This document shows, one piece after another, positions 12,868 to 14,230 of a DNA stretch of 17,045 nucleotides. Both the position numbers and the translations under genes were made by a program. The stretch lies in IMG/VR virus record IMGVR_UViG_2654588181_000007. One strand, given 5' to 3'. The notes beneath the pieces were generated by a model. It did not search any database, was not told the origin of the DNA, and saw nothing but the letters and a program-made list of their open reading frames with translations. This stretch comes from a virus. Taxonomy: Duplodnaviria > Heunggongvirae > Uroviricota > Caudoviricetes. Within the stretch, counting starts at the first letter, position 1. The number at the start of each line of letters is the position of its first letter.

Positions 12868-13170
12868 TCATTGTGTTCCCATTGATGTTCTTTTATATAC
12901 CCTCAGTACCCGTTTCATCGCGGCACTCTGGCGACACTCCTTAAAAATCAGATTCGTGCTCACCTTTCCTTCCCGTTCTTCTCTGGTAGCGAACCGGTAA
13001 TACACCGTTCGCCAGACCTTACCATCAACGACCAGGATTCCTGCCCGCGCCATTTTAGCCGCAGCCTGATTTATGCTGGTTACGGTTGCGCCTGTTACCG
13101 CGGCAACGTCCTGTGCACAGAAGCTCTTATGCGTCCCCAGGTAATGAATAATTGCCTCTTTGCCCGTCAT
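12868..13170 (-). CDS. ren: Lambda Ren-like protein (100 aa)
   Basis: Translation MTGKEAIIHYLGTH.SFCA.DVAA.TGATVTSINQAAAKMARAG closely matches lambda Ren as I recall it. Start overlaps the stop of the O-like gene (ATGA). Confidence 0.85.
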   Translation of the reverse strand: MTGKEAIIHYLGTHKSFCAQDVAAVTGATVTSINQAAAKMARAGILVVDGKVWRTVYYRFATREEREGKVSTNLIFKECRQSAAMKRVLRVYKRTSMGTQ

Positions 13171-13958
13171 ACACTTGCTCCTTTCAGTCCGAACTTAGCT
13201 TTGATTTCTGCGATCTTCGCCAGAGCCTGTGCACGATTTAGAGGTCTACCGCCCATGACAGGAAGTTGTTTTACTGGTTCAGGTATCGCCTCACCACGGT
13301 TAATTCGCGCGGTCATACAGGACAGTTCATCGGCAGCGTTGCGCCGTAATTCCGCGTCAGTCAACGCATTGGCCCGCATGTTCTGATACAGGTTGGTAAC
13401 CAGCCAGTAGTGCGCGTTTGATTTCCACGGATAAGACTCTGCATCCGGATACAGACCACGCTTCCGGCAATACTCGTAAACCATATCAACCAGCTCGCTG
13501 ACGTTTGGCAGCCCGGCGGTACCTGATTTGGGTAAACTTTTTTTACCTGATTCAGGTAAATTTACCTCTTTCAGGTAAACTTTATTTTTCTTACCTGATT
13601 CGGGTAATGTTGACCATTCACTGACCACATTATTAATGCCGGTATTCCGCCCGCTCTGAATAAAAATCCCACGCTTTACCAGAACACTTTTTGCAGCAGA
13701 ACACTTGTGCGGCAATATCCCGGTTAATTCGGAAAGTTGCTCGTTGCTAACCCAATCCAGTTTTTTATTAAAGCCATATGTTTTGCGCATGACAGCCAGA
13801 AAGACCAGAAGCTGGTGCTGTGTTAATCCGGCCAGCATCACAGCTTCCAGCAACTCATTTGCAATGCGCGTATAACCATCATCGAGATCTGCCACGCGCG
13901 GCTCCTTTTGTGCCACATCCGGCACTGGAAAATTGAATATCTCAGCAGTGTTTGCCAT
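13167..13958 (-). CDS. Lambda O-like replication initiator (263 aa from the ATG at 13958); C-terminal part may be a P-derived or fused remnant
   Basis: N-terminus MANTAEIFNF...VADLDDGY resembles lambda O (MTNTAKILNF...VADLDDGY). Strong RBS GGGAGG before the ATG at 13958. Contains the iteron-encoded LPESGKK repeats. The gene directly abuts ren with no separate P gene. Confidence 0.7.
   Translation of the reverse strand: MANTAEIFNFPVPDVAQKEPRVADLDDGYTRIANELLEAVMLAGLTQHQLLVFLAVMRKTYGFNKKLDWVSNEQLSELTGILPHKCSAAKSVLVKRGIFIQSGRNTGINNVVSEWSTLPESGKKNKVYLKEVNLPESGKKSLPKSGTAGLPNVSELVDMVYEYCRKRGLYPDAESYPWKSNAHYWLVTNLYQNMRANALTDAELRRNAADELSCMTARINRGEAIPEPVKQLPVMGGRPLNRAQALAKIAEIKAKFGLKGASV
13520..13610. 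repeat. Origin-type iterons: four ~19-bp repeats TACCTGATTCRGGTAAA, each with internal dyad symmetry, inside the O-like gene
   Basis: Read directly: TACCTGATTTGGGTAAAC, TACCTGATTCAGGTAAAT, TACCTCTTTCAGGTAAAC, TACCTGATTCGGGTAAT. Matches the lambda ori organisation (iterons within O). Confidence 0.65.
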
Positions 13959-14122
13959 AATTCCTCCCGCAATGAGTGCGTTACGATTTGCACCTGAAAG
14001 TCGGCTCTGTTCCCGCAGACCGGCTTTCGCCATTTCTGAGCCTGTCATATTGCCCCCAACATGGTGGTAACCATCGCCATCAATGGACCAGCCAGATGCT
14101 GGTCAAACGCAAAGATGGTACC

Positions 14123-14230
14123 CGTGCGTTTGATGACGATGTTGAGTTTCAGGAGCGCATGGCAGAACACATCCGGTACATGGTTGAAACCATTGCTCAC
14201 CACCAGGTTGATATTGATTCAGAGGTATAA
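14123..14230 (+). pseudogene. gam: gam C-terminal remnant (last ~35 codons of a lambda Gam homologue)
   Basis: The ORF 13976-14230 ends ...[36 protein letters not shown], identical in pattern to the lambda Gam C-terminus as I recall it; the upstream part is unrelated. Confidence 0.7.

Follow-up and report, generated by a model that had tools for sequence, protein, structure and literature searches.

Does the O-like open reading frame (ORF) that lies between ren and the remains of gam in this phage-derived DNA carry a working replication origin of the lambda type, or is it the residue of one? The window, meaning the whole 17,045-nt stretch that was analyzed, is, by its gene content and synteny, a DLP12-like lambdoid cryptic prophage in a state of heavy decay. 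In E. coli K-12, DLP12 is located next to argU and intD. Matches between K-12 DLP12 and the window extend over positions 8114-13081 (emrE, ylcJ, ybcK, ybcL, ybcM and ybcN; 99.7% identity), 15787-17045 (xisD/intD; 99.8%) and 13080-13478 (renD fragment 1 and the pseudogene peaD; 96.5%). An intD-type integrase is found at one end together with the synteny ren-emrE-ylcJ-ybcK-ybcL-ybcM-ybcN-ninE-ybcO-rusA-quuD, and the same gene order is seen in contig L004, which is identical to the window. The window ends at the int stop codon, and in L004 int is followed by fimZ and the sfm fimbrial genes, as it is in K-12. Contig FNIS01000005.1 of an NCBI draft (GCA_900103855.1, labelled Shigella sonnei by its source) is 100% identical to the window over 9.9 kb, and the Logan assembly of SRR4218895 is likewise identical.

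Elsewhere, the window encodes a regulator of the AraC family, a methyltransferase and an invertase, along with remnants of tail fibres, an intact nmpC-like porin, quuD and rusA; lysis and head genes are absent. The emrE gene is frameshifted; this frameshift and the gene losses reflect the parallel decay of the remainder of the prophage. Searches against Rfam at gathering thresholds gave no match in the replication region, the sole match being IS009 at 4098-4296. In this setting, the replication region is very probably a decayed module with a dead origin and an O'-'P fusion produced by deletion, as part of the ordinary decay of a DLP12-like cryptic prophage. The following features form the core of this region.

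13167-14048, minus strand: O'-'P in-frame fusion ORF, recognized by Pfam and by alignments to O and P of phage PhiR34_1 and of lambda
13614-13898, minus strand: O N-terminal iteron-binding domain (Phage_rep_O, residues 51-145 of the 293-residue reading)
13167-13519, minus strand: P-derived part, P residues 117-233 plus the stop codon, equivalent to lambda P domains III and IV
12868-13170, minus strand: intact ren homologue, 90% identical to lambda Ren over 92 residues (E=1e-64)

An earlier note on this DNA had described the frame as an O-like gene with a preserved iteron origin, set directly against ren with no P gene between them. On this account a complete O gene survives, P has been cleanly deleted and everything from kil to cII has been lost in a single deletion. 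The ORF is indeed near the length of O (293 residues, compared with 299 for lambda O), contains four iterons and abuts ren. However, the protein content of the ORF makes a complete O gene very improbable. The alignment with lambda O and P that the same note had proposed for locating a fusion point proved to be the right check: residues 1-176 of O, comprising the Phage_rep_O domain and the iteron-encoded linker, are joined to residues 117-233 of P. The Pfam profile Phage_rep_O (PF04492) matches fusion residues 51-145 over its full length (profile positions 1-95 of 95; E=9e-34), and Phage_lambda_P (PF06992) matches residues 175-258 (profile positions 79-162 of 162; E=1e-23). In protein alignments, the switch from O to P falls at fusion residue 177, which corresponds to P residue 117 and begins the segment TAGLPNV. 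Hence the last 117 codons, according to both Pfam and the alignments, encode the C-terminal half of P and not the end of O, and the claim that P is missing fails.

Lambda O is 38% identical to the fusion over the whole alignment, and it is the N-terminal half of O that aligns. The O C-terminal domain (lambda O residues ~156-299, which recruits P) is conserved between PhiR34_1 and lambda, and is absent here with P sequence in its place. Also absent are P residues 1-116, that is, domains I-II with the N-terminal lasso, the ensemble-assembling domain and the O-interacting N-terminal part. The only solved structures matched by the fusion are those of lambda P (8v9t and 8v9s), and residues 175-293 correspond to lambda P 115-233 in PDB 8v9t (8v9t_V; E=2e-71), apart from three substitutions (R→N, V→S and H→C) that follow the junction. 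Lambda P is divided into domains I (residues 1-29), II (~30-119), III (~120-192) and IV (193-233) (PMC12661323). In the cryo-EM structure of the DnaB-lambda P complex, the C-terminal lasso (domain IV) and domain III sit on DnaB, and the P ensemble is held together by domain II (PMC12661323). The same work used O residues 156-299 as the partner of the P/DnaB complex (PMC12661323). As an observation that runs counter to a pseudogene reading of the frame, the two proteins are joined in frame and near domain boundaries of both, and a folded two-domain product is conceivable.

Several start codons are available to the fusion, giving 293 residues from the database-annotated ATG at 14048, 288 from 14033 (gene callers) or 263 from 13958. 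The ATG at 13958 is equivalent in position to the lambda O start and has a GGGAGG Shine-Dalgarno sequence ahead of it. In an exact-protein look-up the 263- and 288-residue readings were found on record and the 293-residue reading was not, and the start codon is therefore a matter of gene-caller choice. The existing NCBI names for the product are 'phage replication protein P /phage replication protein O' and, for WP_074568471.1, 'replication protein P'; the fusion has thus already been labelled P/O. On the ren side, the ren ATG overlaps the fusion stop codon by 4 nt (ATGA), which is the native P/ren junction, and the homologue is annotated 'protein ren' in intact relatives. The contact with ren described by the earlier note is therefore real, in the form of this 4-nt overlap, but the ORF that makes the contact is the O'-'P fusion rather than an O gene.

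The origin of the fusion can be traced through two intact relatives at 99% identity, phage PhiR34_1 (PV340559; L001) and a prophage of E. coli 2017.09.02CC (L002). Both are 98.5-99.9% identical to the window at the nucleotide level on both sides of every junction, and have the gene order gam-kil-...-cI-cro-YdaT 'cII'-O (339 residues as annotated)-P (233 residues)-ren-emrE-ylcJ-ybcK. Unlike the window, they carry separate full-length O and P genes, five iterons with an AT-rich tract and a complete immunity region; relative to them, the window lacks 836 bp at O/P and at least 2.2 kb on the left. When the window is compared with the relatives by BLAST, a single 836-bp gap appears in this part, with breaks at 13520-13527, and a base-level three-way comparison places the join as follows.

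13520-13521: deletion junction A, joining O AATCAGGTA to P CCGCCGGG at a 2-bp 'TA' microhomology

The missing 836 bp correspond to positions ~3583-4418 of PhiR34_1. Read base by base, the sequence is CCCAAATCAGGTA|AAGGCGTTTACCC on the O side and GCATCCGTTA|CCGCCGGGCTGCC on the P side, and the window has CCCAAATCAGGTACCGCCGGGCTGCC. Junction A is an illegitimate join at the 2-bp TA microhomology. Recombination between iterons was considered as the cause of the deletion and rejected, as the P side shares just TA with the O side. The deleted segment starts two bases short of the end of iteron 4 and extends to P codon 117; with it went iteron 5, the whole AT-rich tract, the C-terminal domain of O and domains I-II of P. 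In the relatives, O and P overlap out of frame, and the loss of 836 bp therefore restores a common frame.

What this deletion left of the origin can be judged from the iterons. The 17-kb window contains just four dyad-symmetric TACC-N7-GGTA sites, all of them within 13520-13606. When the degenerate core TACCYNWWTYNGGTA was scanned over the whole window, with 200 dinucleotide-preserving shuffles as the control, all 4 matches fell in the array; none of the shuffles (0/200) had any match, and 0.00 were expected by chance.

13520-13534, inside the ORF at 13167-14048 (minus strand): iteron 4 core, which keeps 17 of 19 bp
13544-13558, inside the same ORF: iteron 3 core
13563-13577, inside the same ORF: iteron 2 core
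13592-13606, inside the same ORF: iteron 1 core
13520-13609: truncated origin, with iterons 4, 3, 2 and 1 along the plus strand; the ancestral iteron 5 and AT-rich tract are absent

The iterons are spaced 24, 19 and 29 nt from start to start, and each copy has internal dyad symmetry. They encode the peptide LPESGKKNKVYLKEVNLPESGKKSLPKSG, in which LPESGKK occurs twice exactly and is accompanied by the variants YLKEVN and LPKSG. The earlier note was accurate both in placing four iterons within an O-like ORF and in assigning the repeated LPESGKK motif to them. In the alignment of O proteins, the window iterons occupy the same place as those of lambda. The intact relatives L001 and L002 have five iterons and the deletion variants L004-L009 all have four. 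Beyond the fifth iteron, the intact relatives carry the tract CACAAAAGACAAACTAACAAAAGACAATATAAAACCTTTTTCGTC (29% GC), which aligns with the lambda AT-rich region and then runs into lambda-like coding sequence for the O C-terminal domain. In the window, the iteron block is 27-35% GC, and the next 45 nt in the gene direction are 60% GC and consist of P coding sequence. No AT-rich tract flanks the array in the window, as had been suspected by eye; the element is missing because the 836-bp deletion took it.

By definition, the lambda origin comprises four iterons and a 38-bp AT-rich tract (PMC3349717), and the in-frame 12- and 15-bp deletions r95 and r96 within the AT-rich region already abolish initiation at ori-lambda (PMC6022878). 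Among the marks of a lambda-type origin, the window has at least four dyad-symmetric iterons of ~18-19 bp within O coding sequence. It lacks the ~40-bp AT-rich unwinding tract right after the last iteron, and it lacks the upstream rightward promoter pR, judging from a consensus scan and from the deletion of cI, cro and most of the cII-like gene. The absence of pR matters because this promoter would drive expression of O and P and, through transcription, activation of the origin. Thus, the origin is truncated rather than preserved, the fifth of five iterons and the entire AT-rich tract having been deleted relative to the intact relatives, and the idea of a preserved origin architecture does not stand. 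From lambda biology, we infer that the remnant cannot be unwound and cannot fire, because the unwinding element and the rightward promoter are gone and neither O nor P is complete. Loss of the O C-terminal domain, the fifth iteron and the AT-rich tract also tells against a complete O gene.

The module nonetheless resembles that of lambda in several respects. As in lambda, the origin is internal to O and occupies the linker that connects the N- and C-terminal domains, and the iterons are dyad-symmetric units of ~19 bp at intervals of 19-29 bp. The C-terminal half of P and ren are nearly identical to their lambda counterparts, and homology to lambda extends to the AT-rich tract and the O C-terminal domain of the ancestor. 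In contrast, the iterons follow the pattern TTTACC-N7-GGTAAA here and ATCCCTC-N4-GAGGGA in lambda, and the O N-terminal domain has diverged correspondingly, which points to a different origin specificity. The two systems also differ in iteron number, with five in the ancestor and four in lambda, and only in the window is the module truncated and fused.

On the far side of O, the 164 nt that separate the lambda-equivalent O start (13958) from the gam scar consist of three identifiable pieces, and the scar is followed by another fused gene.

13959-14048: O leader, or annotated N-terminal extension (90 nt), as given by the database annotation
14045-14095, minus strand: 3' remnant of the YdaT-domain 'cII' gene (~51 nt, ~16 codons plus stop), which precedes O in the intact relatives
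14096-14122, plus strand: kil (KilR-family) remnant MLVKRKDGT (27 nt), between junctions B and C
14119-14230, plus strand: gam C-terminal remnant (35 codons; Pfam Gam 58-98 of 98, E=1e-20), matching L001 361-250
14236-14748, plus strand: bet'-'DUF1382 in-frame fusion (170 residues; Pfam RecT at residues 24-102 and DUF1382 at 120-167)

The 'cII' remnant is recognized from the alignment of window 13520-14104 to L002 7497-8081, as the YdaT gene of L002 ends at 8022; the Pfam family YdaT_toxin is found on the intact 'cII' protein. At junction B (cII'/kil'), an AT microhomology at 14096-14097 marks a deletion of 2.2 kb relative to PhiR34_1 and 3.6 kb relative to the E. coli prophage. At junction C (kil'/gam'), a TACC microhomology at 14119-14122 marks a 387-bp deletion relative to L007, which put codons 1-9 of kil in frame with the final 35 codons of gam to give a 44-residue ORF at 14096-14230. 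The deletion at junction D, located near 14593-14594 by BLAST against L002 and by the junction sequence, took away the C-terminal part of bet together with exo and DUF1317. Each of the three same-strand deletions in the region yielded an in-frame fusion, an outcome with a chance of ~0.04, judged post hoc, and one that tells against the pseudogene reading. These comparisons establish the anatomy of the locus, its four deletions with their junctions and the domain content of the O'-'P fusion.

The order of these losses can be read from other assemblies. The Logan assemblies L006-L008 share the O'-'P fusion and junction B, yet retain full-length gam and a 49-residue KilR remnant, and the deletion at junction C is common to the window and L004/L005. 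Junctions A, B and D preceded C. Because L006-L008 have the fusion and junction B without the 387-bp deletion, the immunity region was lost in at least two steps. These intermediate assemblies, with at least two deletion events on the left, further weaken the account based on a complete O gene and a single deletion from kil to cII. What the window has lost from the immunity region includes cI, cro and nearly all of the cII-like gene, and pL and pR are therefore missing as well. Accordingly, the earlier note was correct about the absence of the immunity region with pL and pR but not about a single event, and its removal of kil and cII holds except for the ~51 nt of the YdaT-type 'cII' and the 27 nt of kil that persist. 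Its position for the gam scar is borne out by a start at 14119-14123 and a match to Gam profile positions 58-98 of 98. The removal of N and cIII is a different matter: homologues of N and cIII are missing from the annotation of both intact relatives, and PhiR34_1 has no leftward ORF of at least 35 residues between kil and cI, so that their loss cannot be asserted.

Overall, as the intact relatives show, the ancestral module ran from a YdaT-type 'cII' through an O gene with an internal five-iteron origin and AT-rich tract to P and ren. An illegitimate 836-bp deletion at a 2-bp microhomology left the O iteron-binding domain and linker joined to the DnaB-binding part of P. Further deletions at small microhomologies stripped the immunity region in at least two steps, and another removed the bet-to-exo region.

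Whether the fusion is expressed bears directly on its possible functions. A simple consensus scan found no sigma-70-like site on the minus strand between 12800 and 15900, weak or non-sigma-70 promoters and read-through transcription being beyond the reach of such a scan. The sole sigma-70-like match in the region is antisense, at 13933-13961, in a position analogous to that of lambda pO (PMC6022878). Translation of the fusion would be possible if a transcript were made, because the ATG at 13958 retains its GGGAGG Shine-Dalgarno sequence, and no transcript is predicted. Most likely, the fusion ORF is a silent pseudogene whose open frame is a matter of chance. On the plus strand, a 14-bp hairpin at ~13996-14028 folds better than shuffled sequences (z = -2.45). 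An oop-like antisense RNA was considered for this hairpin and rejected, as there is no U-tract and no homology to lambda oop.

Certain lambda derivatives resemble the window in keeping the iterons and losing the AT-rich tract, namely the ori- mutants of the r93/r95/r96/r98/r99 class and the plasmid p27R-deltaAT. Lambda iterons without the AT-rich tract do not support initiation in cis, whereas O binding and, in multicopy, inhibition in trans are retained (PMC6022878, PMC3349717). These derivatives are 12-24-bp in-frame laboratory deletions or engineered constructs, whereas the deletion in the window is natural, spans 836 bp and took half of O and half of P. Such precedents raise the idea of a domesticated replication decoy or exclusion module directed against superinfecting phages of the same O/iteron type, which would work by titration of O, by a dominant-negative O occupying incoming origins or by sequestration of DnaB, with or without an expressed fusion. 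Multicopy lambda plasmids that carry cII'-oop-pO-O'-ITN1-4 without the AT-rich tract block rep-lambda replication (PMC3349717), lambda is arrested by ectopic ori copies (PMC4488673), and the parts list of the window is comparable to that of the blocking plasmids, including the antisense sigma-70-like site at the pO-like position. The in-frame join near domain boundaries fits a decoy as well, and phages of the same O type circulate (15 records at ≥80% coverage). However, the lambda effects required multicopy plasmids, and the window locus is a single chromosomal copy with no promoter-like site ahead of the fusion ORF. Moreover, expression of P is toxic to E. coli (PMC6022878), and expression of a DnaB-binding fragment would therefore probably be selected against. 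Junction A is also rare, and there is therefore no sign of spread or selection, and decay proceeds alongside in the other parts of the prophage, frameshifted emrE included. Taken together, a domesticated decoy seems unlikely. There is likewise only a slim chance that the remnant is active through its match to the lambda silencing fragment, which would involve the cII-like tail, the antisense pO-like site, the O DNA-binding domain and iterons 1-4. In that event, fusion to the DnaB-binding domains of P could create a dominant-negative initiator that shields the host from phages of the same origin type.

The rarity of junction A raises a further question, which is whether the O-P junction might be a misjoin or chimera in one draft assembly. 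The junction was found in none of 5,426 complete E. coli genomes (with ≥80% coverage of 13420-13620 required), in no GTDB species representative and in no JGI metagenome contig, and as a single piece it is in no phage record. Of the 15 phage records that cover at least 80% of the region, those listed are 94-99% identical. An artefact is scarcely credible all the same: just the rarity in complete genomes speaks for it, and the identical junction is present in six independent assemblies, one NCBI draft and five Logan assemblies from different sequencing runs, some of which differ in left-hand structure.

Ordinary decay remains the preferred explanation, and it has a counterpart in K-12 DLP12. 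K-12 DLP12 shares with the window the absence of the immunity region, and its P gene is reduced to a C-terminal piece, the 312-bp pseudogene peaD, which adjoins ren. The K-12 deletion starts in exo and reaches into P, with a junction at window position 13478. Nothing of O or the iterons is therefore left in K-12, where renD is also interrupted by an IS3; the window, by contrast, retains O(1-176), four iterons and an uninterrupted ren but is without exo. The two elements represent independent decay paths, because each retains something that has been lost in the other. A literature search on DLP12 with peaD, or on the iteron sequence itself, found nothing.

The main value of these findings is a correction. 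The locus is best annotated as an O'-'P fusion pseudogene with a truncated, nonfunctional origin, and not as an O gene with a preserved origin. Its components are the lambda-family O, P, ren and ori of a known cryptic prophage, the process of deletion at microhomologies is an ordinary one, and the locus would be of interest in its own right only if the remnant interferes with the replication of related phages. As an example of how such prophages fall apart, it offers a clean, datable case of stepwise decay by short-microhomology deletions, for which the intact, intermediate and final states are all available, and to which K-12 DLP12 adds an independent path.

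Each of the three deletions joining genes of the same strand has kept the reading frame:

13167-14048, minus strand: O'-'P fusion, in frame
14096-14230, plus strand: kil'-'gam fusion, in frame
14236-14748, plus strand: bet'-'DUF1382 fusion, in frame

The chance expectation for three in-frame joins, estimated post hoc, is about (1/3)^3 = 0.04, and the pattern could be a coincidence or could reflect selection against polar or truncated products. Three Logan assemblies (L006, SRR26070039; L007, SRR25177895; L008, SRR28287896) represent intermediate states of this decay. All share the window's O'-'P fusion and cII'/kil' junction, and carry an intact gam (98 aa) and a KilR remnant of 49 aa. 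The 387-bp kil-gam deletion is therefore the window's latest event.

Late-region loss is larger in the window than in K-12 DLP12, and no lysis or head genes lie between quuD and the tail-fibre remnants:

4064-4959: tail-fibre remnants
4098-4296, minus strand: IS009 (RF02111), full-length Rfam model match, 220.9 bits, overlapping the tail-fibre-assembly ORF 4064-4639 in its 3' part
5504-6586, plus strand: nmpC-like porin gene, intact, 360 aa, full Porin_1 profile
6775-7173: quuD

The multidrug efflux gene emrE (12467-12854, minus strand) is one base longer than its K-12 counterpart, with an A inserted behind GGAGTC at about codon 66; the resulting frameshift breaks it into ORFs of 89 aa and 53 aa, and it is therefore probably inactivated. 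The segment holding the C-terminal end of P and the 5' end of ren (13080-13478) is only 96.5% identical to K-12 (L003, the DLP12 locus, 2877-3275), with flanks at 99.7-99.8%, which suggests a different allele or mosaic exchange between the two DLP12 lineages.

Only one sigma-70-like site occurs within 12800-15900; it overlaps the lambda-equivalent O start and is placed as lambda pO, the oop promoter:

13933-13961, plus strand: TTGAAT-17-CATAAT with upstream TG, antisense to O
~13996-14028, plus strand: 14-bp hairpin (fold z = -2.45), lacking a U-tract, ~35 nt downstream of the site

Together, the site and hairpin may specify a putative oop-like antisense RNA.

Intact relatives retain the complete origin of this O type:

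L001 (phage PhiR34_1), 3495-3652: five-iteron origin
L002 (E. coli 2017.09.02CC prophage), 7474-7583: five-iteron origin

Its five iterons read TTTACC-N7-GGTAAA, whereas lambda has four of different sequence; a literature search found no publication with the iteron sequences of this O type. The AT-rich tract, O C-terminal domain and P are almost unchanged between the two. The comparison with lambda clearly illustrates how origin specificity is exchanged as a module.
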